Positions 21,782 to 59,372 of a stretch of DNA of 64,000 nucleotides are shown one piece after another. This stretch comes from Amphiscolops sp. MND2022 (lineage: Eukaryota). The stretch lies in NCBI GenBank assembly GCA_964187785.1, contig OZ076409.1, positions 36,706,001 to 36,770,000 of the forward strand. The letters run 5' to 3'. Made by a program: the position numbers and the translations under genes. The notes under the pieces were generated by a model, which saw only the letters and a list, made by a program, of their open reading frames with translations, ran no database searches and was not told the DNA's origin. The stretch's first letter is position 1, and each line of letters begins with the position of its first letter.

Positions 21782-21869
21782 CTACGATATAAAAACAAAA
21801 GTATTAAATCCTAGTAAATTTTTTTACAAGAATCTGGCATATTTGACATGCAAAATCGTGAAAGGCAAT

Positions 21870-23373
21870 TGTCGCGCTATGACTAACGCTCTAACGAATC
21901 ACCAAAAGGCGCTTTCTATTATAAAAAATAACACGTGCAAAGAGAAACATAAAACTTGAACTAACGTTGTGTGGAGAGTGGAAAGTTGAAGTAAATATGG
22001 CGGCGGCCATAACGCGGCGGCCTCGAAGTGGAGTAATAAGTAATGGAATACTACGGGAAAGGAATTGCACTAGTGAAAATTTCTATTTCTTACCGCGGAT
22101 ATTTGAATTTTAAAGCTGAGCTACCATTGGTAGCATGCAACACATGCCGGCCAGGCACTTCAACAGCTGTGCTGAACTGTTTTTATACCGCGCGCACAGG
22201 CTGGAGATTCATTCATTCCCGCCGGACGGCTGAGCTCAACTTACAGCTCTCTCTCTCTCTCTCTCTTCAACTTATCAATTCCTCTACTTCTCTTACACTT
22301 ACTCTCCCCCTTCTCCCCCTCGACTCTTATTCTCCACTTTCTCTTTGCTTACATTGCACTTGTCTTATCTCAGACTTATAAAGTCAAACTTTCCTCCTTT
22401 TCTCCCTTTCCTCAAGCAAAAACTTATCTTTTCCTTTTCTCTATTCCCCAACAGAATTTTCTATCTTAGAAAATTCTCTTCAATTCAACTTGGTCTCCAG
22501 TTGGGTGAGTCGAAAATATCTTAGATTTTTTCTTTTAGAGGAGATTTTTTACTCTCCCTCCTTCTAACTGAACTCTATCTTAGAATAATTCCGCTGATTC
22601 AATTCTGCGGATTCTATCTTATAATAATTCCGCTGATTTAATTCTGCGGTTGTTAAAATTCTATCTTAGAATAATTCTGCTGATTTAATTCTGCGGTTTT
22701 CCCCTGTTAACTTATTTGTCTTTACCATTCCCATATTCAAAAAAAAAAAAGATGCTATTCCTAAAGTCTTAATGCTATTCCTAAAACAAAGGAGTAGAGA
22801 CTATAAAATTAAATAGTGTTGTCTAAGTTATTACAACACCAAAACTGGATTTTTCGTAAAAAAACTTTCTTCGAACTAAAGGAAATTACTATGAATTTCC
22901 TTCGATGCTAAATTTCTTCATCAATTTATGCTCTAAATTGAAATAGCTAAGATATTACTTCGGTTGCTGGCAAATAAATTTGGTGAGTTTGACTGAATAC
23001 TTGTAAACAGTTGAATAAAAACTGATATGTCTGAAGTTCAACTCTTTTATGTAATTCAACAAGTTTGCTAACATATGTTTTTTTTTCTATAGTTCAGAGA
23101 GCTCATTTACATTCACTGCCTTGCACTTACTCACGCAAGTTCCTTTGTTCGCACGTACACGCAAGGCACTTTCTTTTCGGTATTACAAAAAAGAAATTAA
23201 GTTATTGAGACTTTTCTACTTGTTCTACTTCAATAAAACAACAGTTGTTGGAAAAGCATTTTGCCAAATGTTGTAACAGCTGGGCTGACTAATACGGATA
23301 ACAAATTTGGAATTCCCCTCTAAAAGAGGAAACTGTAAAATAGCAGAACTGAAATTTATCCATGCGTGCGACA
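21870..23373 (+). repeat. 5' LTR (1504 bp)
   Basis: Near-identical to 38173-39677. Differences I saw are (CT)10 vs (CT)9, A12 vs A15, and one G/A at 22570. Contains three internal repeats of about 40 bp (22575-22700) and AATAAA at about 23232. Confidence 0.97.
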
Positions 23374-23376
23374 AAC

Positions 23377-23393
23377 TGGTGCGACCAGTGAGG
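23377..23393 (+). promoter_or_regulatory. Primer-binding site
   Basis: TGGTGCGACCAGTGAGG begins after a 3-nt spacer following the LTR and is complementary to a tRNA CCA end. The tRNA identity is not assigned. Confidence 0.8.
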
Positions 23394-24409
23394 CATCCTT
23401 TTTCTCTTACTATAGAGAAGTAAATGAGCAATCTGTTCGAATCCCTACTCTCAGAAGTTAGGGTTAACTACCTATTTCTCTTAATCTTACTTCTGATTTT
23501 CTTTTTTCTCCTACTGCCCCAATATGTGGCTTCTTTAGTCTATATAAATTACAGAACTGCTAGTAAATACTCTAATAGAATCTCTCCAGCTTAACAGCCG
23601 TTGGAAGAGACTGTGCTCTACCCAACTTAGTCCTCTCAATCCACAAAAAGGTTAGCGCTGATCTATTTTTACGGAAATGCTAGACTACATTCGGTCCTAA
23701 ACAAGAATGAAACTGCCCTCTAACACGGAATTTAAACTTACAGTTGGGAAGTTCACTCAAGTCCAGACGGACACACATTAAGTAAAAGCCCGCCTAGGTC
23801 TCCTCGGAGACTGGTTGAAGGCCGTGAGCCCAGTGGGTGTCCCGGAACCTGTGTAGCATTCCAAGTGGGAAACCTAGTATTCTAGTGATAGTACCCGAGT
23901 GTTTGCATGATAGTGATCTTGGCCCCGCGCACTTAATCCTGAGGACGAGAGTGACTCCCTCTGTTGGTTAGTTCTAGTACTACTTTTACAAAAGCCATTG
24001 AAAGGCTAGTCTAGCGAATTGAAGACCTATTGGACCGACTGTACTCTCCAATCTTTTAAGCTTAACTCGGAGGATTGGTATACTCCGAACTACCCTTTTT
24101 ACGGTAATCGTAACACAAGCGGGATTTGTAAGTATCCCCTAAAAATTTTGAAATTTCAGTAATAAATACTGGGAATGTGCCTATCCTGGGCTGAGATGCG
24201 CTAATTTCATTTTTACTAGCAGCGAATTACGGAGTATATGTTTTGTCAGACCTGCCTAATAATTATCACTGTTAGAATCATTGTACAAACAATTTTTACT
24301 TCCGCTCTTTGTAGTTACTCTCAAAAACCAGGAGTATCATACCTCACAGAGTCTTTGGCTTATTTTTCCTTACTTCATCTTCTATCTTTTATAACCTCAA
24401 TAGCTCACA

Positions 24410-25864
24410 ATGGCTGCGCAAAATTACTTGGCTTATCCAGACCTAGGCCGAGACCAATTCACAGGAACAGACCCAGATCAAGATCCTGAACAATTCATAC
24501 AGCTCATTGAAAAGAAGTTCCGGTTTTCTCACGGTGATACCCCGGCCAACGGACCAGCACTTGATGACTACAACTTCAGAAGAAAATCCTATTTTGCTAC
24601 ACTATTAAGAGGACCCGCAGCAGAGTGGTTCGAGACCAGCATCACAGACGCTAACACTTGGGCAGAAATCAGAGAGAGGTTCATAACGCGATTCGCAGAT
24701 GGCAGAAACAAATTTAGACACAGAATGGAAGCCGAACACGTCATCAGACGAGATGGAGAAGAAATAAAGAACTTCCTACACAGAATTAAAATAGTAGTCG
24801 GAAAAGGATGGCCAGATGATCTAGCCGGAGTCGCACAGAACAATAGAGACGCCGAAAGAGCAGCACAAGACAGACAAAGAAGACAGAGGTGCATTGACTA
24901 CTCACTGAGAGGCCTTCGACCCCCGAAACTGAGGGAAAAGGCACACGAATACTTAATGGATCATCCGAATGCAACCTGGGAGCAGTTCTCTCAAGCTGTA
25001 ATAAACAAAGACCTTTCTTACACAGTAACTACCTCTCTCACCGGTGGAGAATCACACGCAGACCCACTCATCCAAGAATTGCGAGAAGACATCAAAGGAA
25101 TCAAGCTACAAATCAAAGAACAGACGAACAACACTATCAATGCAATAGAGAAAACTGTTGATCCGAACGCAACAGGACGTAGAATGGCCACCAGGTTTTG
25201 CAGCTACTGCCGAACAAATGGGCATACGCCTAACTGGTGCAGAAAGAAGATGAGAGATGAAGAAATCAAGAAAGTTCAAAATGAATCCAACCCAGAGAGA
25301 CGAATAACTTTCACCAACGATTACAACAAAAGAACTGGACCTGGACATGGTTCTAGATTCCAAACTAGACTACCCGATTCAGAAATCAGAAAACATATGG
25401 CTGTGGCACATCAACTAGCACTTGCTGGAGCCATGCAGTCAAACCCTGCCCGGAACCAATATGATAGACCACAAAGAAGAAATTTCAACCCAGAACGCCG
25501 ACCTATGAATACAAGATTCAGTCCTGGTAACCAAAGATTTTCACAAGAAGGAAGAAGACCTTTTCTAAACAATTCTAACAATTCCAGAAGTGTTTCTCCT
25601 GGGCCCCAAAGAGCAAGATCTCCGTTCAGCTTCAACAGAGACCAGCCTAACTCCTTCAACCGCAACATACAGCCTCTTCCACCAAGGAATAACTCAGTCT
25701 TTAATAGACCACAAAACAGAAACGAAAGACCAAACACCCCCACTCAAACCTACGAACAAAGGTTCCCTAGAACTAACGACATGGGAAGACATAACACCGT
25801 ACAGTTTCTCGAAACAGATTACTCGGTGAACTCTGTCGCCGATATTCGCCCTTTAAACTATTAA
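24410..25864 (+). CDS. gag: Gag (484 aa)
   Basis: Capsid-like LRGPAAEWF...W.EIRERFITRF, a CCHC knuckle CSYCRTNGHTPNWC, and an R/N/P-rich C-terminus. Confidence 0.92.
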   Translation: MAAQNYLAYPDLGRDQFTGTDPDQDPEQFIQLIEKKFRFSHGDTPANGPALDDYNFRRKSYFATLLRGPAAEWFETSITDANTWAEIRERFITRFADGRNKFRHRMEAEHVIRRDGEEIKNFLHRIKIVVGKGWPDDLAGVAQNNRDAERAAQDRQRRQRCIDYSLRGLRPPKLREKAHEYLMDHPNATWEQFSQAVINKDLSYTVTTSLTGGESHADPLIQELREDIKGIKLQIKEQTNNTINAIEKTVDPNATGRRMATRFCSYCRTNGHTPNWCRKKMRDEEIKKVQNESNPERRITFTNDYNKRTGPGHGSRFQTRLPDSEIRKHMAVAHQLALAGAMQSNPARNQYDRPQRRNFNPERRPMNTRFSPGNQRFSQEGRRPFLNNSNNSRSVSPGPQRARSPFSFNRDQPNSFNRNIQPLPPRNNSVFNRPQNRNERPNTPTQTYEQRFPRTNDMGRHNTVQFLETDYSVNSVADIRPLNY

Positions 25865-28800
25865 GGTCTCCGAAAAACCGTAACAGCAGCACTGCCCCAC
25901 TAAAATTTAGTCTTAATCTTTATTATTTTGCTGCCGGAGACTCACAAAAAGATAGTGGCTTAGAAATCGAATTTCTACTAGACACTGGGGCAACATCTTC
26001 AATCATTAACTACAGGACCTTTAGAGAACTCTGTCAATTTCAACAAGACCTCGAACTCAGCAGAAGTAACAACACAACACGGAACTACTCTGGGCAGATC
26101 ATCCCTATGATGGGATACATCACCCTTAAACTCTACTACGATTCCGATGGACAACATAACTTCCCACTGACAGTCTGGATAACAGAGATGAAGACCCAAA
26201 ACCTCCTTGGAATGAACTTCTGTCAAGAACAAGTTAACAAAATACACTTTGATCTTCCTGGCATAGAACTCAAAAGACCTATAAATACTTTCTGCTATGG
26301 CAGTCTACAACTCAACAAATGTTACCCCTACGTATCACAAATACTCTCAGTCCGAATTCCTCACTCAATGTATATCGAACCAAAGACGACAAGATGTTAC
26401 AAATTTGCACCGGAAAACCCCAAGAACTCCTTTCCTCCCGGATCTACGTTCCTACCCAACAGAAAAGCAGTCTCTACAGGACTAAATTTTATAAATGTCC
26501 TTTGTACAAGATTTGAGAAGACTTTGCCAATCGTCATGGAAAATAACAAAAACCATACAATCACCCTAGTAAAAGGAACTATTGGATACTCTCTGCTCGA
26601 CGTATTAGACCAAGAAATTCCAAAATACCAAGTTAGAAACCCTACGGAACTCGCCTACGCTATCCTAAACGAAAACGAAGAATACAATGACTGTTTCCTG
26701 TTGCACTCCACCATCCCTTCACAAGATATGAACGATTGCATCAGAATAGAAGGAGGAAATTCTACTACAATCCTCAGCAGACCCGACTCCATCATGATCT
26801 TTGTCCCGGCAGATCTGAAGCCAGCCAAAGGCTTCTCGAAAGAAATCCTAACGAACATACCCTTGTTAAAAGAATCTTGCGCAAAACAGAAACCACTCAA
26901 AGGGGATACAATACCTTACTGGGACATGAATCTAAAACGATTCATATACGTCCTAATCACAAAAGCTAAATCAAAAGACAAAATCGACCCACAAATCTTA
27001 GTCCAAACGCTAGAGACTCTAAAAGCACACGCCAAAATGAATTGTATCAAGACCATTTCTATGTTACGAGAAGCGTCAGAACTAGAAGATTTCCAATGGC
27101 AAGATGTGACACAAATTATTCAAGATGTTTTTGCCTACTCGGAAATACAACTCCGAATTTATACAAGAAATGAACTAGACGTCTATGCTATGACTACGAG
27201 AGGAGACCCCGAATACGCGCTGGAAGACGAGATACAACAATTTTCCGAGCAATTTCACCTTAAACATAGAGAGCTGGAGACAGACTTTACGAGTGACGCA
27301 AAGTCTTGTCAACCACCCTGCGATGAGCAATTTAAAATCTTCAGGCAAAAAGAAGACAACGAAAGACTGATCGAGTATTACCTTCAGTACCAGAACAAAG
27401 AAGCAGTGCAATACATCAAAGAATTCGACTTTCGCTACTCAGACCTTACTGACGAGGAACTTGTGCTCCTAATAGACCAACTAATGGATGCGAGAGATGT
27501 ATACTCCCAACACAAATTCGACGTAGGAAAAACCAGACAGAAATTTAACATCAAACTCGAACCTGGAGCAATCCTGAAGAGACAGAGACCCAGCAAAGTA
27601 CCACTTCACCTAAGAGAAAAGTTAGAGAAGCTACTCACACAACTCAAAGACGCCGATATTATCAGAGAGATGGGCGATGACGACGAAATGGGATCCTTAT
27701 TCGTAAATCCTATTATACTACAACCAAAACACGACTATGTAAAACTGATCATAGACGCAAGATACCTAAATTCAGTGACGGATCTAACAAACTACTCCTG
27801 GCCCTTAGAACCGATCCAAACCATAATGACACTAATCAACGGGAACATCTTCTCAGTAAGTGATCTCTCCTGTGCATTTCACCAAGTCCCATTAGACGAG
27901 CCTACACAAAAACTTACAAGCTTCATCATAGGCGGGAAACAATACACCTTCACCAGAGGATTCTACGGACTTAAAGGGTTACCAAGCTTCTTTAGCCGAA
28001 TGATGACAATTCACTTCGAACCTCTCATTAAAAAGAAACAAGCAATCACCTACATAGACGACACGTTGATGCAAGCGAAAAGTAAACAAGAAATGTTCAC
28101 AGTGATTCAAGAATACCATAACCTACTACGGAAAGCGGGACTAAAAGCGGCACCTGACAAAACACTCTTCTTCTTGAGGAAAGTCAAGTTTTTGGGACAT
28201 GTGATTGCAGCAGAAGGAATACAACCCGTAGCTAAACGAGTAAGAGACCTACATAATCTCAAATCACCAAAAACCAAAACCGAAGTGAAAAGCTTCTTGG
28301 GAGCCTTAGGTTTCTACAGCTGCTACATCAAGAACCTTCACGTCGATAGTCGACCCTTTTACGAACTCACAAAAAAGGATACAAATTTCTGTTGGAACCA
28401 AGAACATGAAGACCTCTTCCAACAAATAAAGAAAAGAATCAGCGAAGACACAGTTCTTGCAGTACCTTCAACAAAATATCCCTTTCATATACACGTCGAC
28501 TCTTCCAACGTAGGGACAGGATGTATCCTCATACAACAATTTCCAGAAGGGAAACGGATCATTTCTTTCAATTCCAGAGTCTTCGCAAAAGAAGAACAAA
28601 AAATGTCTACTCTACATAGAGAACTATGTGGAATAGTCTCAGCATTACAAACCTACGAACACTATATCATTGGATCTCCCTTTCCAATTTACTTATATTG
28701 TGACCACAAACCAATTCTTTATCTCTGGGGACGAAAAGGACAAGTTTCACCGCGTTTCTTCAGGTACCAAGTAATAATCTCTAAATTCCCAAATCTCAAG

Positions 28801-31359
28801 ATAATTTGGACCCCAGGAAGCAATTTAGCCTTCCCTGATATACTCAGCAGAAACGTATCGATAGAAGAACACAAAAAACATCAACTCAGTCACAAAATCC
28901 TACCGAACGATATTCACTTCTTCGACGAGCATGGAACCCAAATACACTACAAAATAAAACACGAAGAAAACGAAGAAACGTCAAAAAACGATTTCTACCC
29001 CATCCTGTACGAAAAAGGAGATGAACGAAAAATTCTTCAACTACAAAACGATGGAAATAACTTCACAGTTAACAATATCTACGAGGAACCTAACCTGCCG
29101 AAAATAGAGTCAGCACAGAGTTGTCTCGACGCTGGAAGAGAACTAGGAAAATTTTCAGATCTAAAAATCAGATCCGGGACAAGGGATAGCACTTCCGATT
29201 CGTCTCAGAATACTTACAGCTCCATCAATAGCGATGCAGATGATGAAGCCTGCACAGACAACCAAAGTCATGAAGTAAACGAGACCAACTACGAGCTCAA
29301 CACTGAAGATCTCACCGCACGTAACACAGGTATTCCCGAAAATGCAAAGGCAATAGAACACCTCAGTCTACCTACAAATTCAACGGAAAAACACAAGACC
29401 CCAGCCCGAGAGCTCGTCAGTCAACTCGACAAAATATCAAAAGAAGTGGATCTAGACGTCACAACAATCTTACAAGAACAGATCAATGACCCGGTGCTCA
29501 GTGTGGTTCGACGATGGATACAAACCGGAAACAGGCCTACGCCAAAATCACCAGAATTACAACACTCTAAAGGACTCATGCGCTATTCCCAAGAGTTTGA
29601 TAGATTGACCATAGAAGAAAACGGAAACCTACTGTGCTACAATGAACCTACAGATAAGACGGAAGAAGAAAATCTTCGAATATGCTTACCACTCTCCTTA
29701 TTTCTCGCCTGCTTCCGATTAGGACACTACAACGACCTCGGAGGCCATATGGGAGCCGAGAAAACCTACCTAAATGCTAAAAGATTCTACTACTGGCCCG
29801 GGATGCACGACTGGATTTGTGCCCTCACACAAGATTGCGTTAGCTGCCAATCTAACAAATCCAAACAAAGAAGAAATTACGAAGTCCCACTGGAGGACTG
29901 TGAAACCGAGACCCAAGTATTCAGAACTGTTCATATCGATCACAAGGGACCACTCAACCCTCCCAGTCGTGGAAATTCACATTGCCTCCTCATCATCGAC
30001 GCATTTTCACGCTACTTGATGGCATACCCAGTTAGAGACACAGGTGCACAGTCAACAATCAACGCTATGGAAAAATGGATTATGCACTATGGGATACCGC
30101 AGTCTATCATACACGATAGAGGAACGGCTTTCGTAAACACTGAATTCGTCAATTGGACTAAAGAGTTAGGCATCACTCTCCGGCCAAGAACTGCACACTC
30201 ACCCTGGACTAACGGAAAAGTGGAAACCCAAAACCAACACATTGCAAGGTACTGGAGAAACTTCTTAAACGACTCAGGAAACAACTGGGCCCAACTAGCT
30301 GCTAAATTCGCATTTGCCCACAACACAAGCGTCAACTATACCACTGGAAAGACACCATACGAAATAGTCTTCTGCAATAAACCACAGATACCTATGAGTC
30401 TTAAGTTGGGTCTATACCGTAATAAAAACAAGAATTGCAGATCACAGTTCTGCAACGGACTGCCTCCTCACTGCCACAGCGAAAACCAAGTCAAAAACGA
30501 ACTGCTGAATGGACTATTAAGACCTCAACTATCTCAAAACCTGCTTGAAAGAGAGACCGCCTTCAAGAAAATCTATTCGTCCACTTACGAAAAATGCAGA
30601 AAACAAACAGCTAGATCTCATGCCTACAGAAACAGATTTAAACTAGGCAGCCATCTCAACATCGGACAAAAGGTCTTGTTAGAAAACCATCGGAAAGACC
30701 TCTCCAAAAGTCAAAAACTTCAACAACTGCGATTAGGACCATTTACAGTTACCAAGAGAATCACCAACACAACATACCAAATAAAAAACGATCAAAACCC
30801 CGAAAATCTCCGAACAGTCCATAGAAATCATTTAATAGAATACTTTCCCAAAGAGGAAACACTCCCCCCTCTTATAGAAGAATACACAACTCCCTACCGT
30901 GGAGACACGGATTTCTATAACAATTTTGTCAAAGGAAGAATAGAACGACTTAATGTTTCAGAACCACAGATACTCGGGGATCTCTGCATTTTACCAGTCC
31001 GAAACCAACAAAGACAGACCACCGCACAAAAACGAGTGAGAACTCCCCAGAGCACCGACTCTGGTATTATTTCCCCAGAAAATCACCGGTTGGGAACACC
31101 AACAACTCCGGATCAGCCTACTACATCCCGTCCTCCTGGTTCAACTACTCCTATCCAAACACTGACGCAACAAATAACACCCGAACCCTTGACTACCACA
31201 CCGGCTACTTCGACCAAATCTTTGACACCCCTACAAGAACTCAGGCGAGCGGTTGCAAGTCACGTCGAAAGAAATCCCCGCTATCAGCGAGCACAACCCA
31301 ACCAACCAGCACCACTGTCCATCCTTCGGCAAAAAACTCGCGTAGGCTACAAAGCCTAA
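25852..31359 (+). CDS. pol: Pol (protease, macrodomain, RT, RNase H, integrase), translated by -1 frameshift from gag
   Basis: The -1 frame is open from the slippery site T TTA AAC (25852). LLDTGA has D at 25981, upstream of the ORF-track ATG. Also YIDD (28051), RNase H HVDSS...CDHKP, integrase H-H-C-C, D-D-E and a GPF motif. Confidence 0.95.
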   Translation, partial: FKLLRSPKNRNSSTAPLKFSLNLYYFAAGDSQKDSGLEIEFLLDTGATSSIINYRTFRELCQFQQDLELSRSNNTTRNYSGQIIPMMGYITLKLYYDSDGQHNFPLTVWITEMKTQNLLGMNFCQEQVNKIHFDLPGIELKRPINTFCYGSLQLNKCYPYVSQILSVRIPHSMYIEPKTTRCYKFAPENPKNSFPPGSTFLPNRKAVSTGLNFINVLCTRFEKTLPIVMENNKNHTITLVKGTIGYSLLDVLDQEIPKYQVRNPTELAYAILNENEEYNDCFLLHSTIPSQDMNDCIRIEGGNSTTILSRPDSIMIFVPADLKPAKGFSKEILTNIPLLKESCAKQKPLKGDTIPYWDMNLKRFIYVLITKAKSKDKIDPQILVQTLETLKAHAKMNCIKTISMLREASELEDFQWQDVTQIIQDVFAYSEIQLRIYTRNELDVYAMTTRGDPEYALEDEIQQFSEQFHLKHRELETDFTSDAKSCQPPCDEQFKIFRQKEDNERLIEYYLQYQNKEAVQYIKEFDFRYSDLTDEELVLLIDQLMDARDVYSQHKFDVGKTRQKFNIKLEPGAILKRQRPSKVPLHLREKLEKLLTQLKDADIIREMGDDDEMGSLFVNPIILQPKHDYVKLIIDARYLNSVTDLTNYSWPLEPIQTIMTLINGNIFSVSDLSCAFHQVPLDEPTQKLTSFIIGGKQYTFTRGFYGLKGLPSFFSRMMTIHFEPLIKKKQAITYIDDTLMQAKSKQEMFTVIQEYHNLLRKAGLKAAPDKTLFFLRKVKFLGHVIAAEGIQPVAKRVRDLHNLKSPKTKTEVKSFLGALGFYSCYIKNLHVDSRPFYELTKKDTNFCWNQEHEDLFQQIKKRISEDTVLAVPSTKYPFHIHVDSSNVGTGCILIQQFPEGKRIISFNSRVFAKEEQKMSTLHRELCGIVSALQTYEHYIIGSPFPIYLYCDHKPILYLWGRKGQVSPRFFRYQVIISKFPNLKIIWTPGSNLAFPDILSRNVSIEEHKKHQLSHKILPNDIHFFDEHGTQIHYKIKHEENEETSKNDFYPILYEKGDERKILQLQNDGNNFTVNNIYEEPNLPKIESAQSCLDAGRELGKFSDLKIRSGTRDSTSDSSQNTYSSINSDADDEACTDNQSHEVNETNYELNTEDLTARNTGIPENAKAIEHLSLPTNSTEKHKTPARELVSQLDKISKEVDLDVTTILQEQINDPVLSVVRRWIQTGNRPTPKSPELQHSKGLMRYSQEFDRLTIEENGNLLCYNEPTDKTEEENLRICLPLSLFLACFRLGHYNDLGGHMGAEKTYLNAKRFYYWPGMHDWICALTQDCVSCQSNKSKQRRNYEVPLEDCETETQVFRTVHIDHKGPLNPPSRGNSHCLLIIDAFSRYLMAYPVRDTGAQSTINAMEKWIMHYGIPQSIIHDRGTAFVNTEFVNWTKELGITLRPRTAHSPWTNGKVETQNQHIARYWRNFLNDSGNNWAQLAAKFAFAHNTSVNYTTGKTPYEIVFCNKPQIPMSLKLGLYRNKNKNCRSQFCNGLPPHCHSENQVKNELLNGLLRPQLSQNLLERETAFKKIYSSTYEKCRKQTARSHAYRNRFKLGSHLNIGQKVLLENHRKDLSKSQKLQQLRLGPFTVTKRITNTTYQIKNDQNPENLRTVHRNHLIEYFPKEETLPPLIEEYTTPYRGDTDFYNNFVKGRIERLNVSEPQILGDLCILPVRNQQRQTTAQKRVRTPQSTDSGIISPENHRLGTPTTPDQPTTSRPPGSTTPIQTLTQQITPEPLTTTPATSTKSLTPLQELRRAVASHVERNPRYQRAQPNQPAPLSILRQKTRVGYKA

Positions 31360-31367
31360 TCTACATC

Positions 31368-31754
31368 ATGCCTTGTCATAAAGTTTACCTAAATTTATCA
31401 TGGCAAGTTCCACGAGAACTCCAATCCTTAAACGTTCTACACGTTACAATCACAAAAATCTACTGGACCTACACAAACAAACTAATTAGAATTTGCTTCT
31501 ACTCCAACGACCCAGACCCGAGCCCCCACAAACAACCTACGCCCAGAAAATCAAATCTTCATGTTCACCCAGAATCCAAAACGTTTGCTCAACTATATCA
31601 GCACCTAGCCTACCATGCAGTCAACCATCACGACCCTATCCTAGAAGAACTCTTATCCTACATGCCTACCCTAATTCCTGACCTACAACCTTCCTCACAC
31701 AATACTCAAAAGGACCTATTCTGCTGCTCGACTATCTCCTCACCTAGCTCCTAG
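31368..31754 (+). CDS. Accessory ORF A (128 aa), unknown function
   Basis: ATG lies 8 nt after the pol stop. Shares a residue pattern with ORFs B-D. Confidence 0.6.
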   Translation: MPCHKVYLNLSWQVPRELQSLNVLHVTITKIYWTYTNKLIRICFYSNDPDPSPHKQPTPRKSNLHVHPESKTFAQLYQHLAYHAVNHHDPILEELLSYMPTLIPDLQPSSHNTQKDLFCCSTISSPSS

Positions 31755-31916
31755 CCGGCACATTTAACCTATTAGCGATGTATTACCTTTAATATATTCT
31801 ACTTCCGTTTATCGATATTATTTGTGCAATCCCGAACATGACTTACGAAAAGCCACAAGCACAGAAGCGTATAAAAATAGTAGAGAATTTTCCTGGAGAT
31901 GAGAGGCGACTTGCGC

Positions 31917-32561
31917 CTACTCAATCTCCAGAAAACCGCCTTTCTCCGCTAGCCGCCTCAACTGGGAAGCCCGCTCCTCTCTGGTCCATAACTGGTACAG
32001 CCTCACCCACTGCCCCCTCTCGAAGCTGGTCAACTGGCAGAACCCATCTATATAGGCCCTCAGTTGACACAGCACTAATTCCCCTAGAGGGGACAGGAGG
32101 GTTCCCTCCCAACGGGCTCCCAGGTTGGCCCTCAAGAAACTCACAAAGGCATTTGGGATGGGCGCCCCAGATAAGGCAAACCCGGGAGACCCCCGCATGG
32201 AACGGGACAAAGAGGCCCAATTCTCTAACCGGTCCACGTCCCTCCGGTTAAAGAGGCTGAGAAAACTCTGCTCTCCGGGGTTCTCTAAAACCCCTTGAGC
32301 CACTACTGTGGAGGCCTGCAGGACTGGCCTGGGGGCCACAGCAGCAACAGGCGCAGAAGAGGAGGACGGCCCAGCCGCCAACAAAGAAGGCCCAGCCAAC
32401 GACAAAGAAGGCCCAGCGGCCGACGAAGGGCCCACAGACGACGAGGGAGCAGACGACGAGGGAGCAGACGACGAGGGAGCAGACGACGAAGCAGCAGACG
32501 CAACTGTTTCCTCATCGGTCGATGATTCCTCGTAGTAGTCAGACTCGTTGTTGTTACTCAT
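31917..32561 (-). CDS. Antisense accessory ORF (214 aa), acidic and Ser/Ala/Pro-rich N-terminus
   Basis: ATG-initiated. A TATA-like TTATAAAA lies about 65 nt upstream and ATTAAA about 125 nt downstream on the minus strand. It is a GC-rich island inside an A-rich element. Confidence 0.55.
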   Translation of the reverse strand: MSNNNESDYYEESSTDEETVASAASSSAPSSSAPSSSAPSSSVGPSSAAGPSLSLAGPSLLAAGPSSSSAPVAAVAPRPVLQASTVVAQGVLENPGEQSFLSLFNRRDVDRLENWASLSRSMRGSPGFALSGAPIPNAFVSFLRANLGARWEGTLLSPLGELVLCQLRAYIDGFCQLTSFERGQWVRLYQLWTREERASQLRRLAEKGGFLEIE

Positions 32562-32849
32562 TCTGAAGATATCTTAGCTTTTTTTGTCCTAAAGTAATGC
32601 ATGCTTAAACAAATATTTATCTCTTATTTTATAACAATATCTTATGGTTATTTGCCTAAACCGCCTACGATAATCCTACAATAGATAGAATATATCTTTT
32701 GAAACTTCTCTGTACTCAACCACGATCTTCTACGAGATCGTGTTTATACTTTTCAAACACCTCTGTCCTCCAACGCAATGAAATAACTGATGATTACATT
32801 CTCAGATTTGCCATGTTTGAACAACAGTGAACACTGAAGTATCTCACAG

Positions 32850-33071
32850 ATGATCATAATCTTCAAAATCGACAACCGTCTTTCACAAATCACAGATATC
32901 CAGAAGGAACCCTCAACGCAGAACATTATCGTACAAGCATACGCAATAGCAGAAGAAGAAAGTGAAACCTACACTTGTGTGCCAGCATCACCTATCTACC
33001 CTCTACTGGAGAGCTTGCTATATAACAACACCCCTACTGAAGTCGTCACAAGAGCCAAGTCAGTCATTTAA
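32850..33071 (+). CDS. Accessory ORF B (73 aa)
   Basis: Its stop overlaps the next start (TAATG). Pattern is similar to ORFs A, C and D. Confidence 0.5.
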   Translation: MIIIFKIDNRLSQITDIQKEPSTQNIIVQAYAIAEEESETYTCVPASPIYPLLESLLYNNTPTEVVTRAKSVI

Positions 33072-33466
33072 TGTCCTCTCCCGCAGTCGCCGTGTTCCGC
33101 GGAAATAATTACTACTTCCACACACAGTTTCAACCTCCTGTTCCTTGGACTCCCATACAACTCAAGGGCCAATACGAAATACAGTCAATCTTCTACGAGA
33201 TCACAACCTCTGCGATTCAAGTGCGTATACTCACACCAGAAGACAAAGAAGCTCTAGTCCTCTTCCCTATTCACTTCGGATCCAAGGAATACGCCTACTT
33301 ATTCCTTTCGTTCAAGCAATACATCCTCCAACACCCCGCAGTTCTCAAAGACAAGGCTTTCGACGACTTGGTTTATTTTATGGACATCACTCTCACCTCC
33401 AACCCCTTCGAAGAAGAAGTTAGAATCAAATACCTTCACAGCCTAGTCGACACTTATGATGTTTAA
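33071..33466 (+). CDS. Accessory ORF C (131 aa)
   Basis: Start is coupled to ORF B by TAATG; overlaps ORF D by 11 nt. Confidence 0.62.
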   Translation: MSSPAVAVFRGNNYYFHTQFQPPVPWTPIQLKGQYEIQSIFYEITTSAIQVRILTPEDKEALVLFPIHFGSKEYAYLFLSFKQYILQHPAVLKDKAFDDLVYFMDITLTSNPFEEEVRIKYLHSLVDTYDV

Positions 33467-33800
33467 GATTCAACTCAAGTTTCTCTGGCGCCACCCTGAA
33501 ACAAATACACTTCTCGAAATTCTCTCTATCGCTTGGAAAGAAAACGCACCTTCACTACAAATCGAACTCCATAGCCTCCGACCACAAAACCCAGGACATT
33601 GGCTCATCCCAGTTGACACCAACTCCCAAGAGGCTACTGATCTCTCACTCGCACTAAAGGAATATAGGCAAATTGCCTATCTCGACCACATCCACCCTCT
33701 AACACTGTTCCTCCTCAACAAGCTCATTGACTTCCTCGAATTGAGAAGACGAAACAAAACCTCTCCCAGTCTACAATCAATCCGTGACAACTACAATTGA
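33456..33800 (+). CDS. Accessory ORF D (114 aa)
   Basis: ATG overlaps the end of ORF C; paralog-like pattern. Confidence 0.62.
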   Translation: MMFKIQLKFLWRHPETNTLLEILSIAWKENAPSLQIELHSLRPQNPGHWLIPVDTNSQEATDLSLALKEYRQIAYLDHIHPLTLFLLNKLIDFLELRRRNKTSPSLQSIRDNYN

Positions 33801-33845
33801 ACTTTCAGCAATGGTTGAAGTTAGTCTCTTTTAACTTCCTATTTT

Positions 33846-34300
33846 GGCACTTTTTAACAGTAGTGAGGTTACTACTATAAAATTTTAACCTCCGCTTAGT
33901 GCTAGTGCCCACTAAGCTGCCGGTTTGATATTACGGCTTGCCTTTTTACGGCCTTATAACGGATCCTCAATAATAAAATATACTAAAGCTTCAATAATTA
34001 ACCTACTCTTCGGCACTTTTTTAACAGTAGTGAGGTTACTACTATAAAATTTTAACCTCCGCTTAGTGCTAGTGCCCACTAAGCTGTCGGTTTGATATTA
34101 CGACTTGCCTTTTTACGGCCTTACTACGAATCCTCCTCTCTGGAACACACACCTATTTCCCTGAAATAATAAAATACTTATCGTTCCCCTCGGCACGTTT
34201 TAACAGTAGTGAGGTTACTACTATAAAATTTTAACCTCCGCTTAGTGTTGTGCCAGCTAAGCTGCCGGTTTGATATTACGGCTTGCCTCTTTACGGTCTC
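33846..34300 (+). repeat. Three tandem copies of a structured element of about 110 nt upstream of env
   Basis: Copies start at 33846, 34012 and 34192. Stems are conserved, with a compensatory base change in copy 2. Confidence 0.9.
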
Positions 34301-34377
34301 TACTAAACACTTAAACTGATTCTTTAACAGGGAGCGATTACACGGTTGATTCAAAAACAGACTGAAGAATTTCAACA

Positions 34378-36525
34378 ATGAAATTATTTTTCTTACTCTT
34401 CTTATGCGCCAATTTCGCGCCCGTTGTGAACTCACAACGTTCAACGCCAAACCTCGCTAGCGTTGCTAAAAAATTGCGAGTAACTCATTTCGACTGCGGC
34501 GAAATGACACAAAATAAGCTCTACGCCTTGAATCAAGTAGAGCAATGCAATGTGGCCCCGGAAAACTTAGAAGTAAGTCGTGCTAGCGTGACGTTATACA
34601 CTAAACACTTTCGTCGCACTATCAACGCTACTATGTGCCGTGTGAAACACCAGAGTGAAGAATGGCATTGTGGTCATAATGACCACTCCAGTATGTCAAT
34701 CCTACACAACGGAATCACCAGCGATATTTCCTTGTCACCCGAAACCTGTAAGGCCATGGGCGAAGGCAAAGAAGTCATGATCCATGGACAACCCCTCAAA
34801 TTTAAGAAAGGAGTCAAACAAGTACAGACGAGAAACGCCAAATACGGAAAAAGTTGGGATGGAGTACGTGACCCTGATACCCGTAATGAGTGCAAGACAG
34901 GCGGATGGATTAAACGCGAAACCTTCGAATCTCATATCCAAGACGTCGAATTATCAGTCAAAACCAGAGACGGGAAAATCCTCACACCCTTCCAGATGGT
35001 TCTCCCCTGCCCCCTGGAACAACTCGGCTGCGAAACCACGTCATTGGACCCGTACGCCTATACATGGGCAGAGCCAGATAACTGCGTGCTCGCAGTCCAC
35101 AGAAAAGAAATAGTGAATATGATCAAACATGGCTCTAACTACTATATAGTTAGCGGCAACGACTCCACTACCAAGTTCCTATTCGAAATATACAACAGGC
35201 CACAGAAATACTGCAACAAACCCGATGATGTCTACCCTACCAATTACGAATCCCTCTACGTTTCGACCCAATTTGGTGGCTTCGACATGACTTCTGGCAG
35301 ACGACTCGGCATCTCCATGGGAGAAACCTCCAAACTTCAATATTACTCACCCAACGATGGTTCTGGTAATGGCAGACTCCACCTCTTCAGAGGCCCCAGC
35401 GACTCCAACCCCAACACACCACATTATCTCAACATGGATTACGAACTCCACCAAGGAACCAAGTTAGATTATCTCTTCTTTGAGAGCACCCGCTTACTCG
35501 AAGCTTCAGAGATCCAGCTATTGAAAGCTCAATGTGAGCAAGAACGAACACAAATCCTTACCATCCTGATGTTATCCATGGAAAACCCACGACTCGCCGG
35601 ATACATGCTCACGGGAAATCGCTCGATGTTCCTGAACACAGATGGTAGCCTCGCATGGCTCTACCACTGCCCGGAATCCCACTCACCTCTTCACACGATG
35701 AACCAATGCTACGACCGCATACCAATCTTCTACAAGGGAGTGGTCGCCTTTGTAGACCCCATAACCCGACAAACATATCCTAACGCGAACGTACAAAACT
35801 GCACAGATCGTATTAAGAACCTCTTCCAACTGGACATGGAAGACAAGGACTCCTGGTTCACCCTTACACCTTCACCCGAACATCGGGACCGGCCTGCTAT
35901 CTTCGGACCCAAAGACATCCAGCCAATGATTACCAGATCTTTCCCAGGATCACAGGACGCGGGAATGTACACTCCCAAGCAACTCTCCGAGTTTTGGGAC
36001 AACATCCTCATCAGCGCCGCATCACGTAATGCCCTCCAGAAGTTCTCAAGAGAGCTCATCATACCCTCCATGGCCCACAGCGGACCAGAATCCTTCGCGT
36101 ATTACGCACCTCGTACAGATTTCTATGTCGACGGAATGATTTCACCCGACTACTTTAAAAATCAGTTCCTCGAAACATTCGGAAGTATATCTTATGTACT
36201 AGAACTCTGCGGAGCGTACTTTGGCGCTTTCCTTTTTATCAAGTTCGTCATAGATATCACGGTACTAGTCTTCCGCTACTTCGAACTTCGTCACCTTACA
36301 GGTAACACACTGAGCTTCACTAAAACCTTGCTCAGTGCTTCGTACAACCTTTTCTTTACCTCTGTTTTAACTTCCGTATTTACCCCGCGGGCCCCTTTCG
36401 AGGATAGCATTGAAGACAAAAGGGTAAAAACAGAAGACGAAGAAAAAGGAGTAGAACTCCAAATCCTAAAACAAAAAGAGGAATCACTATATCCCTCGGT
36501 ACAGAGCTTTGTTGCTCCAATATGA
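34378..36525 (+). CDS. env: Envelope glycoprotein (715 aa), chuvirus-G/herpes-gB-like class III fusogen candidate
   Basis: Signal peptide and a Cys-rich ectodomain (HFDC, C-x8-HCG, CEQER...P..A..L, CYDRIPI...FVDPITR). N-glycosylation sequons are present, with a C-terminal TM at about 36196-36273. Confidence 0.85.
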   Translation: MKLFFLLFLCANFAPVVNSQRSTPNLASVAKKLRVTHFDCGEMTQNKLYALNQVEQCNVAPENLEVSRASVTLYTKHFRRTINATMCRVKHQSEEWHCGHNDHSSMSILHNGITSDISLSPETCKAMGEGKEVMIHGQPLKFKKGVKQVQTRNAKYGKSWDGVRDPDTRNECKTGGWIKRETFESHIQDVELSVKTRDGKILTPFQMVLPCPLEQLGCETTSLDPYAYTWAEPDNCVLAVHRKEIVNMIKHGSNYYIVSGNDSTTKFLFEIYNRPQKYCNKPDDVYPTNYESLYVSTQFGGFDMTSGRRLGISMGETSKLQYYSPNDGSGNGRLHLFRGPSDSNPNTPHYLNMDYELHQGTKLDYLFFESTRLLEASEIQLLKAQCEQERTQILTILMLSMENPRLAGYMLTGNRSMFLNTDGSLAWLYHCPESHSPLHTMNQCYDRIPIFYKGVVAFVDPITRQTYPNANVQNCTDRIKNLFQLDMEDKDSWFTLTPSPEHRDRPAIFGPKDIQPMITRSFPGSQDAGMYTPKQLSEFWDNILISAASRNALQKFSRELIIPSMAHSGPESFAYYAPRTDFYVDGMISPDYFKNQFLETFGSISYVLELCGAYFGAFLFIKFVIDITVLVFRYFELRHLTGNTLSFTKTLLSASYNLFFTSVLTSVFTPRAPFEDSIEDKRVKTEDEEKGVELQILKQKEESLYPSVQSFVAPI

Positions 36526-36556
36526 ATTATTATCTCATTTCGTAGTTTACGTTTAG

Positions 36557-37159
36557 AATTTAGAACCCTTATTCGACCTCCCAAACCTGGACGACGACAT
36601 CCCTAACTCTATCTTAGAAGACGACTTGCAGATAGAACCCTTATCACCTTCTGACCTGCTGTCACCTGCTTCTCCCACAACTATTACCTTTCTCCTAGAT
36701 CCCCCAGACTCAACAGTTCCTTCTCCGATTCCAAGCGCCCTAACAACAACACCCTCTCCAACGACATCACTACAACTCCCCTTTCCGCTGTCATTTACAG
36801 AAGAGGTAGCGCCTATCCCATCAACTCAACATCCACCTCGATCGCCCCAACATCCACCCCGCTTCGGCGGAAAAGACATAAGACGGGCACTACCCAGGAA
36901 ACACCAACAACAATGGAATGACAAAATAACAGATGACACGCCACTGAAGAAACAACACAAGCGGGAGTACTTCACTAAACGAGCAAGACACGTTAAGAAG
37001 CCCAGATTCAACACAGAGTTGAAATACACTCTCCTCCCACAATTCTCAACTTGGAAAATCGTTTTCTGGGATAACAAGAGACAAGAGTACACCATAGAGA
37101 ACCCAGCCCTAAAGGGACAAAGACTAACGGTCCCCCTAAGAGCCATCTCAGCACAATGA
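36557..37159 (+). CDS. Pro/Ser/Thr-rich ORF with basic C-terminal half, no ATG (possibly spliced)
   Basis: The frame is open from 36557, right after tttacgtttag (acceptor-like). Its stop overlaps the TRAF ORF start (ATGA). Confidence 0.45.
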   Translation, partial: NLEPLFDLPNLDDDIPNSILEDDLQIEPLSPSDLLSPASPTTITFLLDPPDSTVPSPIPSALTTTPSPTTSLQLPFPLSFTEEVAPIPSTQHPPRSPQHPPRFGGKDIRRALPRKHQQQWNDKITDDTPLKKQHKREYFTKRARHVKKPRFNTELKYTLLPQFSTWKIVFWDNKRQEYTIENPALKGQRLTVPLRAISAQ

Positions 37160-38058
37160 ATCGGAGGCTAAACCCAGACGCTATCCCCTTCATCCCAAAA
37201 AGCACTCCTTCCTTCCCCAAAGCTAACGACTGGCCACCTCTATCCAGGACAGAGAATAAAGATGACCTCGAGACACTCGAGGGAATCAAAAGATTGAACA
37301 AATGGATCGCTGAACTGGAAGTCTCAACTAGCCCACAAAGTGAAAAGGTAACCCCGATCCTAAGGAAATCGTTTCCCATAACCGACATAAAACAGCCTAG
37401 AACAAAGTTTGCTAGTGAAATGAAACAACTCCAAAACTTGGCAGAAGAAACGCGGACTAAATGTAATCACTTGGAACTCACAATATCCAATCTACAAGCG
37501 ACAATCAAGTTTCAAGGCGCCCTACTCAACAAAACCAACGTATTAGACGCAAGAAGTGGTGAACCCATCCTTTGGCACATACCCGCTTTTTCCACACTAT
37601 ACAGAAAAGCAAAGACCTCCCCGAATGATGCGTTGAACAACATCAAAAATAGCTTCACTAGCCCTATCTACACTACCCACCTAACCGGCTGCAAAATATC
37701 CCTCAGACTATTCCCTTATGGCGCCAACATCTTCCGCGGAACCCATTCCTCAATTTCTTGTGATCTACACCCCAGCGACTTCACTCTCCCACGAACGTGG
37801 CCTTTCGAGCAACAATTGATCGTCTCAATCATAGACCAAAAAGACAAGAACAACAAATGGTCCATCTCCTTTCCCTATCCCTCCAAAACAGAAGAGTATG
37901 AAGACCCGCACAAGAACGACTACACACTCCCAGGACTGATGAGAGAAGACTTCATCGCGCACACAAAACTCCTGGTAAACTTTAGAGAAGCCTTCCTAAA
38001 CAATGACTCCGTCATAATCCAAATTCAATTTGACAGACCCCTTTTTTCTAAACCCTAG
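37156..38058 (+). CDS. PAM2 - coiled coil - TRAF/MATH domain protein (300 aa)
   Basis: LNPDAIPFIP (PAM2), a heptad segment, then ILWHI...SPIYT...GCKISLRLFPYG...GTH.S...WPF.Q.....IIDQ...FL.NDSVIIQI, matching the TRAF-C consensus. No RING or zinc fingers. Confidence 0.88.
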   Translation: MNRRLNPDAIPFIPKSTPSFPKANDWPPLSRTENKDDLETLEGIKRLNKWIAELEVSTSPQSEKVTPILRKSFPITDIKQPRTKFASEMKQLQNLAEETRTKCNHLELTISNLQATIKFQGALLNKTNVLDARSGEPILWHIPAFSTLYRKAKTSPNDALNNIKNSFTSPIYTTHLTGCKISLRLFPYGANIFRGTHSSISCDLHPSDFTLPRTWPFEQQLIVSIIDQKDKNNKWSISFPYPSKTEEYEDPHKNDYTLPGLMREDFIAHTKLLVNFREAFLNNDSVIIQIQFDRPLFSKP

Positions 38059-38160
38059 TGCTAAAACATGTCCCCCTTCCCTCATGCTCTTTCACCTAAT
38101 ACCTCTTTCTTGACCTGACCCCAAATTTCTCTAGTAAAGTTGTTGCTTTTTCACCCTGCC

Positions 38161-38172
38161 AGGGGGGTGAGC
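38161..38172 (+). promoter_or_regulatory. Polypurine tract
   Basis: AGGGGGGTGAGC lies immediately before the 3' LTR. Confidence 0.75.
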
Positions 38173-39677
38173 TGTCGCGCTATGACTAACGCTCTAACGA
38201 ATCACCAAAAGGCGCTTTCTATTATAAAAAATAACACGTGCAAAGAGAAACATAAAACTTGAACTAACGTTGTGTGGAGAGTGGAAAGTTGAAGTAAATA
38301 TGGCGGCGGCCATAACGCGGCGGCCTCGAAGTGGAGTAATAAGTAATGGAATACTACGGGAAAGGAATTGCACTAGTGAAAATTTCTATTTCTTACCGCG
38401 GATATTTGAATTTTAAAGCTGAGCTACCATTGGTAGCATGCAACACATGCCGGCCAGGCACTTCAACAGCTGTGCTGAACTGTTTTTATACCGCGCGCAC
38501 AGGCTGGAGATTCATTCATTCCCGCCGGACGGCTGAGCTCAACTTACAGCTCTCTCTCTCTCTCTCTTCAACTTATCAATTCCTCTACTTCTCTTACACT
38601 TACTCTCCCCCTTCTCCCCCTCGACTCTTATTCTCCACTTTCTCTTTGCTTACATTGCACTTGTCTTATCTCAGACTTATAAAGTCAAACTTTCCTCCTT
38701 TTCTCCCTTTCCTCAAGCAAAAACTTATCTTTTCCTTTTCTCTATTCCCCAACAGAATTTTCTATCTTAGAAAATTCTCTTCAATTCAACTTGGTCTCCA
38801 GTTGGGTGAGTCGAAAATATCTTAGATTTTTTCTTTTAGAGGAGATTTTTTACTCTCCCTCCTTCTAACTAAACTCTATCTTAGAATAATTCCGCTGATT
38901 CAATTCTGCGGATTCTATCTTATAATAATTCCGCTGATTTAATTCTGCGGTTGTTAAAATTCTATCTTAGAATAATTCTGCTGATTTAATTCTGCGGTTT
39001 TCCCCTGTTAACTTATTTGTCTTTACCATTCCCATATTCAAAAAAAAAAAAAAAGATGCTATTCCTAAAGTCTTAATGCTATTCCTAAAACAAAGGAGTA
39101 GAGACTATAAAATTAAATAGTGTTGTCTAAGTTATTACAACACCAAAACTGGATTTTTCGTAAAAAAACTTTCTTCGAACTAAAGGAAATTACTATGAAT
39201 TTCCTTCGATGCTAAATTTCTTCATCAATTTATGCTCTAAATTGAAATAGCTAAGATATTACTTCGGTTGCTGGCAAATAAATTTGGTGAGTTTGACTGA
39301 ATACTTGTAAACAGTTGAATAAAAACTGATATGTCTGAAGTTCAACTCTTTTATGTAATTCAACAAGTTTGCTAACATATGTTTTTTTTTCTATAGTTCA
39401 GAGAGCTCATTTACATTCACTGCCTTGCACTTACTCACGCAAGTTCCTTTGTTCGCACGTACACGCAAGGCACTTTCTTTTCGGTATTACAAAAAAGAAA
39501 TTAAGTTATTGAGACTTTTCTACTTGTTCTACTTCAATAAAACAACAGTTGTTGGAAAAGCATTTTGCCAAATGTTGTAACAGCTGGGCTGACTAATACG
39601 GATAACAAATTTGGAATTCCCCTCTAAAAGAGGAAACTGTAAAATAGCAGAACTGAAATTTATCCATGCGTGCGACA
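38173..39677 (+). repeat. 3' LTR (1505 bp)
   Basis: Direct repeat of 21870-23373, followed by the TSD CAAT. Confidence 0.97.
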
Positions 39678-39831
39678 CAATGTATTTTAGAAAACTTCTG
39701 ATAGAAATCGTGCAAGATCTAGCGAGTACAAATCGTTTCATTTGCATTGAATGGTTTTTAAAAAGATCCAAAACGAGCATTATCAAAACATGTTATCCAA
39801 TGTGTTATCGAAAACAATATTGCGTCATTAC

Positions 39832-59172: not shown

Positions 59173-59372
59173 NNNNNNNNNNNNNNNNNNNNNNNNNNNN
59201 NNNNNNNNNNNNNNNNNNNNNNNNNNNNNNNNNNNNNNNNNNNNNNNNNNNNNNNNNNNNNNNNNNNNNNNNNNNNNNNNNNNNNNNNNNNNNNNNNNNN
59301 NNNNNNNNNNNNNNNNNNNNNNNNNNNNNNNNNNNNNNNNNNNNNNNNNNNNNNNNNNNNNNNNNNNNNNNN
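59173..59372. other. Assembly gap (200 N)
   Basis: Run of N. Confidence 1.

Follow-up and report, generated by a model that had tools for sequence, protein, structure and literature searches.

A young env-bearing Ty3/Gypsy element of Amphiscolops sp. with a candidate complex-retrovirus-like genome

Herein we characterize a complete Ty3/Gypsy (Metaviridae) provirus in the genome of Amphiscolops sp. MND2022, located within a 64,000-nucleotide stretch of the forward strand (hereafter the window; contig OZ076409.1, positions 36,706,001 to 36,770,000, of assembly GCA_964187785.1). A first-pass annotation made from the letters of the window had described a young, intact endogenous retrovirus, and its structural outline holds: the two long terminal repeats (LTRs) differ by 1 substitution and 2 indels (both in simple repeats) across 1507 columns and end in 6-bp inverted termini (TGTCGC...GCGACA), a target-site duplication, a primer-binding site (PBS) and a polypurine tract are in place, and gag, the pol frame and env are all stop-free (Table 1). 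Around these genes lie U1 upstream of gag, a cluster between pol and env (A1, the minus-strand A2m, A3, A4 and A5) that is followed by three copies of a structured RNA element, and B1 and B2 behind env. We consider it likely that this is a recently transposing, env-bearing Ty3/Gypsy element, i.e., an errantivirus with an env of the herpes simplex virus (HSV)/glycoprotein B (gB) type, whose genome is organized like that of a complex retrovirus.

Table 1 Features of the element, in window coordinates.
Feature	Position	Strand	Description
Provirus	21870-39677	+	Complete Ty3/Gypsy (Metaviridae) element, 17,808 bp
Target-site duplication	21866-21869, partner 39678-39681		CAAT, 4 bp
5' LTR	21870-23373	+	1504 bp, TG...CA, internal 47-bp tandem repeat
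PBS	23377-23394	+	18 nt, fully complementary to 3' end of host elongator tRNA-Met(CAT)
U1	23424-23594	+	56-aa single-pass membrane protein, transmembrane segment 14-32; accessory gene upstream of gag
gag	24410-25864	+	484 aa; Retrotrans_gag E 1e-4, below cut-off; CX2CX4HX4C knuckle
Slippery heptamer	25852-25858	+	T TTA AAC at gag end, three bases before gag stop codon
pol frame	25795-31359	+	1854 aa; protease, macrodomain, reverse transcriptase, RNase H, integrase; -1 to gag
Macrodomain	26752-27165	+	TARG1/OARD1-like, inside pol, E 4e-10
A1	31368-31754	+	128 aa, paralogue of A4/A5; starts 8 nt past pol stop
A2m	31917-32561	-	214 aa; Ser/Ala-rich low-complexity N-half and all-helical C-domain (predicted)
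A3	32850-33071	+	73 aa; stop overlaps A4 start (TAATG) in three families
A4	33071-33466	+	131 aa, paralogue family
A5	33456-33800	+	113-114 aa, paralogue family
RNA element	33840-34310	+	Three copies of ~110 nt between A5 and env; three covarying stems
env	34378-36525	+	715 aa; hydrophobic N-terminus, 16 Cys, 4 sequons, transmembrane segment 614-632
Splice donor	34573-34578	+	Top-scoring donor-like site; follows env codon 65 in phase 0; may pair with B1 acceptor
B1	36557-37159	+	200-aa ATG-less frame right behind pyrimidine tract and TTTAG acceptor, phase 0
B2	37156-38058	+	300 aa: PAM2-like motif, coiled coil, TRAF-C/MATH; start overlaps B1 stop (ATGA)
Polypurine tract	38161-38172	+
3' LTR	38173-39677	+	1505 bp

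The element is young, multi-copy and recently transposing, as is seen from the LTR identity and from near-identical copies in the 1.07-Gb host assembly, in which our counts are lower bounds except for that of the exact junction between LTR end and PBS. This junction occurs 295 times in the genome (reversed control: 0). The 5' 9.5 kb has at least 12 full-span matches at 98-100% identity (14 scored candidates), whilst the accessory region matches at least 28 places, with full-span copies numbering at least 12 at 99% or more (the focal copy included) and at least 5 at 94-95%, and others at 82-86% (22 scored of 600 candidates). For env, at least 64 matches fall into groups at 100, 92-96, 74 and 61% (62 scored of 8,801 candidates). 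A pattern search with the PBS returned 9 sites, and the 7 that were fetched comprised 4 tRNA-Met(CAT) genes together with 3 partial tRNA copies that terminate in CCA; one of these copies adjoins an LTR end of the focal element's family. Such matches fit priming by elongator tRNA-Met, which we take from the sequence to be the primer of reverse transcription, just as the 4-bp duplication marks integration. Genomic tRNA-Met fragments that end in CCA and extend up to the anticodon arm (L040, L043, L045 and L039, where L-numbers are our labels for loci and records) are likely products of primer over-extension; one is joined to an LTR end, and that of L039 lies within an inverted repeat. The 5' LTR holds donor-like sites at 22505 and 22983 and acceptor-like sites at 22538 and 23092, and its internal tandem repeat (22570-22696) takes the form of many 88-bp units in related families (LTRs of L036 and L047).

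Selection was estimated from pairwise Nei-Gojobori codon counts between subfamilies (200 bootstraps), expressed as the ratio of non-synonymous to synonymous differences per site (pN/pS). All eight accessory ORFs (open reading frames) gave ratios of 0.09-0.55 with bootstrap intervals all below 1, namely U1 (0.22, 0.35), A1 (0.12, 0.38), A2m (0.28, 0.31, 0.53), A3 (0.11, 0.29), A4 (0.09, 0.42), A5 (0.16, 0.16, 0.41), B1 (0.17, 0.18, 0.49, 0.55) and B2 (0.33, 0.55), where the higher values come from distant pairs whose protein-guided alignments have saturated synonymous divergence (dS), which tempers their weight. A single frame spans at least 95% of A1, A3, A4, A5, B1 and B2 in all 18 loci L001-L018. 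The family with an env at 74% has the identical order U1, A1, antisense gene, A3, A4, A5, env, B1, B2, plus one extra ORF, and the families of L030 (61% env) and L031/L038 have kept the paralogue cluster, env, B1 and the MATH protein; no U1 was found in the leader of the L030 family. Comparison of these sequences thus establishes eight accessory genes as maintained by purifying selection, bringing the gene total to 11. The explanation that the region is a one-off nested insertion, or that its frames arose by chance in a spacer, could appeal to the shortness of several ORFs and to the spuriousness of two overlapping or leader ORFs; however, it is refuted by gene order and frames conserved across families with saturated synonymous sites, and a copy family under codon-level selection excludes chance ORFs, so that we give it practically no credence. 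The first-pass count of about ten ORFs, about seven of them accessory and placed around env, captured a real accessory set while missing its number and the gene before gag, and two of its calls change: the gene at 31.8-32.6 kb is on the minus strand instead of being a plus-strand ORF, and B1 has no ATG. A leader ORF (24238-24489) was rejected as a gene (pN/pS 2.07, interval 0.64-9). The stop-start overlaps A3/A4, A4/A5 and B1/B2 recur across families, which suggests reinitiation, and the downstream genes are probably reached by splicing combined with reinitiation at these three junctions. Between the antisense gene and A3, a ~40-nt non-coding motif (32773-32822) is kept in L013, L020 and L025, with partial conservation in L023 and L029, and is possibly a bidirectional promoter or an RNA signal; in L029, an unrelated repeat (881-1465) splits the stretch between the antisense gene and the extra ORF.

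The backbone on which these genes sit is that of Metaviridae, with TG...CA LTRs, target-site duplication, PBS, polypurine tract and the order protease, reverse transcriptase (RT), RNase H, integrase all present. Pfam recovered the protease, RT, RNase H, integrase zinc finger (H2C2), integrase core and SH3-like C-terminus in Ty3/Gypsy order, with the motifs DTG, YIDD, HHCC and D-D-E, and the best solved match of Pol is Ty3 Gag-Pol (E 2.6e-56), followed in similarity ranking by foamy virus (1e-22) and murine leukaemia virus (7e-17). The Bel/Pao gag and pol of Belpaoviridae were not seen, as Pfam gives Ty3-type RT_RNaseH, H2C2 and SH3_Tf2-1 and zero Pao families, nor were an RT of the retroviral clade or a class I surface/transmembrane env, by which Retroviridae are recognized. 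The heptamer at the gag end is of a slippery motif class, and Gag-Pol would very likely be made by a -1 ribosomal frameshift at U UUA AAC; no strong RNA structure was found downstream of the site. The macrodomain noted at first pass among the accessory modules is present, but lies inside pol. It matches OARD1, whereas the Gly-rich loop of TARG1 is replaced, which makes hydrolase activity doubtful and ADP-ribose binding the likelier function. In the gap between protease and macrodomain (about 26350-26650, pol aa 185-285), the sequence has the look of a degenerate dUTPase-like beta domain; it has no Pfam match.

Env matches the Pfam family Monjiviricetes_fusion (PF24664; E 5e-31, 107.8 bits against a cut-off of 27), by which we assign it as a chuvirus/gB-type (class III-like) fusogen; its signal peptide was judged by eye. 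A single frame spans at least 95% of env in 15 of the 18 loci L001-L018, and its pN/pS values of 0.06, 0.23 and 0.35 include the lowest of any gene tested (0.06). Chuvirus-like glycoproteins resemble herpesvirus gB, and in the survey of Chary and Hayashi (PMC13524379) gB-type errantiviruses are established across metazoans (1,512 elements), the HSV/gB-type env being about as common as the F-type among metazoan errantiviruses. Hence the class III fusogen, which the first-pass annotation named among the combined modules, is upheld as a Pfam assignment, but is not unusual on a Ty3/Gypsy element. Of the attributes by which that survey recognizes errantiviruses of HSV/gB type, the element shows an intact post-pol env with chuvirus/gB-like homology, a putative signal peptide and a transmembrane segment, in many near-identical copies. 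We lean towards Env driving soma-to-germline spread.

The antisense gene A2m keeps its ATG and stop in relatives at 62-64% and 38% BLASTP identity, whilst the overlapping sense frame breaks. Against L013, substitutions at its three codon positions number 36/15/63, and it is intact in 16 of the 18 loci L001-L018, compared with 12 of 18 for the overlapping sense ORF. The plus-strand ORF 31838-32251 is broken in L013-L018 and L020 and was rejected as a gene. In L013-L018, a different A2m allele stands between closely similar flanks, which we read as a module swap. An A2m profile matches an antisense segment in the 61%-env family L030 (E 1.8e-4, small six-frame search), where the homologue has a GT-AG intron: an upstream ATG exon ends in phase 0 at a GTAAGT donor, and a T-rich TTTTAG acceptor precedes the matched segment. 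The same split layout was seen by eye in L031, with no profile match. An intron on the antisense strand only is expected of an antisense transcription unit, since it would be retained through reverse transcription, and A2m is very probably made from an antisense transcript that is spliced in the distant families. HBZ of human T-cell leukaemia virus type 1 (HTLV-1) is likewise an antisense gene. The C-domain model of A2m (helices, pLDDT 84.7) has no structural match (best BFVD E 1.0; best VIA Z 4.3), and the 12 relatives found among 8,000 scored candidates are all without a name.

B1 is ATG-less in L001, L020, L022, L023 and L029, in each of which it starts after a pyrimidine tract and TTTAG with the TAG in frame. 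A frame of this kind needs an upstream exon that ends at a codon boundary. Scanning for donors upstream of B1 gave 22 donor-like sites above 1 bit. The strongest of them, 34573 (5.0 bits), is alone among those above 3 bits in following an ATG frame that is open in phase 0, namely env codons 1-65; it is retained in L020, L022 and L023. Read-through from env was rejected as a source of B1 on account of the in-frame TAG and of an env-B1 frame offset that varies among families. The protein consists of an acidic Pro/Ser/Thr-rich part, an Arg/Lys-rich segment and a conserved 65-aa C-domain; a PDB profile search with its alignment gave nothing significant, and the ESM Atlas returned only unnamed clusters at 0.80 or lower. 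A metagenome record (L034) has an ATG-less Pro/Ser-rich frame that follows env behind TTTTAG; its B1 profile score is not above shuffles, and the likeness is positional only.

In the RNA element, 9 of 24 pairs show double changes and 95% of cells pair (12 copies from five loci); slid controls pair at 25-52%, and 0 of 500 shuffles reach the observed covariation, bearing in mind that related sequences may outscore shuffles. The element is also found ~1.35 kb behind the PBS at five other places. The one of these that was fetched, L047 (G000:C1:64708300-64715800), is a young derivative (LTRs 99.8% identical), about 6.9 kb long, devoid of gag and pol and left with env fragments only, and has two repeats at 95-96% against 71-82% in the neighbouring coding remnants. 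As the repeats are better kept than the coding remnants, a cis-needed export or packaging signal is the best explanation, and the structured RNA is probably a cis-signal for mobilization. About ten equal-scoring repeat matches suggest a satellite family. L047 also carries an intact 182-aa ORF (2093-2641) whose MATH match is weak and falls below cut-off (E 0.008); an ORF of L029 (1629-2159) resembles it by eye.

We tentatively propose, as a suggestion held nearly in balance, that B1 is a spliced regulatory protein which acts together with the triplicated RNA structure to let unspliced genomic RNA be exported or packaged, in the manner of Rev and its response element (RRE), Rec and its response element (RcRE), or CERV. 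HERV-K(HML2) Rec/Np9 have an env-internal donor joined to a downstream exon with a basic segment, together with a structured response element (PMC5861771), a layout that B1 would match, and the Gypsy-type LTR element Cer1 of C. elegans makes a spliced accessory mRNA whose product, CERV, is required for genomic RNA export (PMC10309623). CERV is described there as a single regulator that has G and M domains as well as a Cys loop, none of which is seen in B1. A structured cis-element in unspliced RNA is one mark of export systems of this type; covariation supports one here, which could serve the corresponding function. The Rev/RRE of human immunodeficiency virus (HIV), HTLV-1 Rex and HERV-K belong to Retroviridae with class I env, whereas the RT here is Ty3-like and the env class III-like, so any likeness would be convergent. 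Several observations speak against the proposal. In L029 the donor is a weaker GTTAGC, Ile stands at the donor codon in the env relatives P0021 and P0024, and the best donor would join the env signal peptide to B1, a poor fit for a nuclear protein unless Met44 or signal cleavage were used. No RNA element turned up in L030, L031 and L038, and L022 has one copy of it; a fourth stem, which would give an H-type pseudoknot, never varies and is thus unsupported. Alternatively, the triplicated RNA may be an internal promoter, an internal ribosome entry site or a nuclease-blocking structure for env expression, with B1 as an Env-linked or secreted protein: the repeats are directly upstream of env, Tor elements are described as transcribing env from an internal promoter (PMC4402516), the best donor links env codons 1-65 to B1, and L047 retains the env 5' end beside its repeats. 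However, the compensatory changes and G-U wobbles in the stems point to a structured plus-strand RNA rather than to a DNA element, L047 has maintained its repeats without an intact env, and B1 begins at an ATG of its own and shows no signal peptide in L030, L031 and L038, and we regard this alternative as rather unlikely.

B2 bears out the TRAF module that had been noted (TRAF-C at Pfam 9e-12; TRAF5/TRAF4 match E 2e-7), with no RING or zinc fingers among its Pfam matches. The PAM2 module also holds, in that L[NS]PxAxxFxP, a PAM2-like motif, opens 7 of 9 B2-type proteins; its absence from the other 2 counts against the role proposed below. Animal TRAF proteins have coiled coil and TRAF-C in common with B2, which differs by lacking RING and zinc fingers and by its PAM2-like motif. 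A coiled coil with TRAF-C but without RING or zinc fingers is the anatomy of a dominant-negative TRAF. We slightly favour B2 being a TRAF decoy without RING, which would dampen signalling of the TNFR/TLR type and, through PAM2, bind poly(A)-binding protein (PABP).

For the paralogues A1, A4 and A5, a 13-row profile recovered 70 representatives at E 0.001 or better, and profile-profile comparison of subfamilies gave 87% for A1-A4, 91% for A1-A5, 96% for A4-A5 and 82-94% for each against the L030/L031 type (reversed decoys below 0.5%), a test that is not fully independent because a joint profile had served to collect the rows. When 37 non-A-type hits were made into a profile, it placed A1 (20 bits) and A5 (11 bits), but not A4, above 505 decoys (best 4.4 bits). 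Pfam on 62 rows showed no family in common, PDB profile searches with the alignments gave nothing significant, and the ESM Atlas had nothing usable for A4. The A5 model (pLDDT 86.4) has a four-stranded sheet, then two long helices (beta4-alpha2) and a short C-terminal helix; in comparisons that bore on PUR/Whirly/PC4 and PH-like folds, Foldseek gave E 0.2 or worse and VIA a best Z of 5.5, the PUR/Whirly/PC4 reading being seen only in Foldseek rows at E 0.5-1.2 and not recovered by VIA. The idea that A3 or the B1 C-domain belongs to this family or derives from an integrase SH3 domain gained no support (hhalign probability about 1% or less). An A4-like protein (P0301) has its best match in the host genome at only 37%, and an env (P0016), whose group nests with the focal element's family in the env tree (support 99/98), at 59%, so that related elements probably exist in other genomes. 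Further env relatives (P0094, P0099, P0107, P0123, P0129, P0131) stand at 36-42% on short contigs and separate long branches, and a search of IMG/VR found no relative. Members of the A1/A4/A5 family also stand directly before gag in other elements, some after a U1-like hydrophobic segment (P0261, P0264, P0277, P0279, P0266, P0288, P0311). It is possible that A1, A4 and A5 are host-binding antagonists diversified by duplication. U1 has the identical length in two other families.

These roles have to be weighed against an ordinary gag-pol-env errantivirus whose extra ORFs, although real, serve only intracellular ends (RNA handling, chromatin targeting, anti-silencing), with Env acting in local cell fusion or being vestigial and host immunity left unmodulated. 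Metaviridae offer examples of lone accessory genes that act inside the cell, namely CERV (PMC10309623), TRP28 ORFs in antisense (PMC11963269) and ORF3s of enzymatic type (PMC5408684), four of the pre-gag family members above (P0261, P0264, P0277, P0279) fit such a role, and no RxxR site occurs in the Env sequence. It is a further reservation that, apart from the MATH part and the macrodomain, the accessory proteins have no family or fold match in Pfam or PDB profile searches, which leaves the functions proposed for B1, B2 and A1/A4/A5 resting on anatomy and analogy. However, a furin site is not always retained in gB-type env (PMC13524379), env is the most constrained gene tested, and a TRAF-C and coiled coil protein ends the element in all four families examined, and we think the purely intracellular account unlikely.

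Compared with the ancient errantiviruses with HSV/gB-type env in PMC13524379, our element shares Ty3/Gypsy pol, gag-pol-env order, a chuvirus/gB-like env, multiple copies and a tRNA PBS, but differs in a 3,018-nt pol-env spacer and a 1.6-kb post-env region that carry accessory genes. The words accessory, macro, TRAF and MATH do not occur in the main text of that survey, whose first filter was limited to regions of up to 10 kb with no more than 1,000 nt between pol and env. Sequence searches of its supplementary file 1 did not return the PBS of the focal element. In plant Retand/Tat (PMC11963269) and bdelloid LTR elements (PMC5408684), a long region between pol and the 3' LTR holds conserved antisense ORFs, tandem repeats and captured extra ORFs, whereas their domains are others (TRP28; GDSL esterase, DEDDy exonuclease) and their abstracts give no comparable gene set flanking env. 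Drosophila MDG1-group sORF1/sORF2 (PMC11952523) include, as a likeness to U1, a small transmembrane accessory ORF, but MDG1-group elements lack env. No published element with this accessory set was found in the literature searched, which was mostly outside subscription journals and did not include Repbase or GyDB; within that scope, env-bearing Gypsy elements are already published (PMC13524379) and the accessory gene set appears to be the new part.

As for its setting, the element runs opposite to a putative minus-strand host gene of LRR-Ig-FN3 appearance, into which it is inserted between an Ig-like (weak, E 0.039) and an FN3 exon region. The window also contains a TLC-domain exon (492-995), a Tc1/mariner DDE_3 fragment (6525-6995), a second Gypsy-like LTR element recognized by eye from translation (10233-16049; 209-bp LTRs at 99%, no env ORF, pol fragmented), a 200-N assembly gap (59173-59372) and a dynein heavy chain exon (62493-62840). 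Rfam gave 0 matches at E 0.1 or better across 21800-39800.

The possession of a complex genome, with genes for regulation, antisense expression and action against the host, is commonly regarded as a property of vertebrate Retroviridae. The eight selected extra genes, one of them antisense and one that would be reached only by splicing, bring the layout nearer to HIV/HTLV than to an ordinary jumping gene, and with the antisense gene, splice-dependent exon and structured RNA the resemblance to complex retroviruses is stronger than at first noted. By analogy, the element would work like a complex retrovirus while standing outside Retroviridae. What is seen of the accessory genes, antisense gene and structured RNA is evolutionary constraint; functions, expression and infectivity are inferred. 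A bolder reading, to which we give limited credit, is that this invertebrate lineage of Metaviridae is infectious and arrived on its own at the entire toolkit of a complex retrovirus. That toolkit would comprise an export protein of Rev/Rec type spliced out of env, a new RNA motif resembling the RRE, a spliced antisense regulator in the style of HBZ whose helical fold has no match, a membrane peptide of Vpu/FAST type, a new family of paralogues that antagonize the host, and a TRAF decoy; the lineage would also support satellites with their own MATH-like gene. Env-bearing Gypsy elements have been described as three-gene elements, whereas here a Ty3/Gypsy backbone carries eight selected accessory genes, and the radiation is both abundant and still young; surveys limiting the pol-env gap would tend to overlook elements of this kind. 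The element supplies two confidently modelled folds without a match and an RNA motif without an Rfam match, it makes convergence on retroviral gene regulation testable, and its accessory set points to the host defences that may be fought: TRAF signalling, PABP-linked translation or decay, and ADP-ribosylation.

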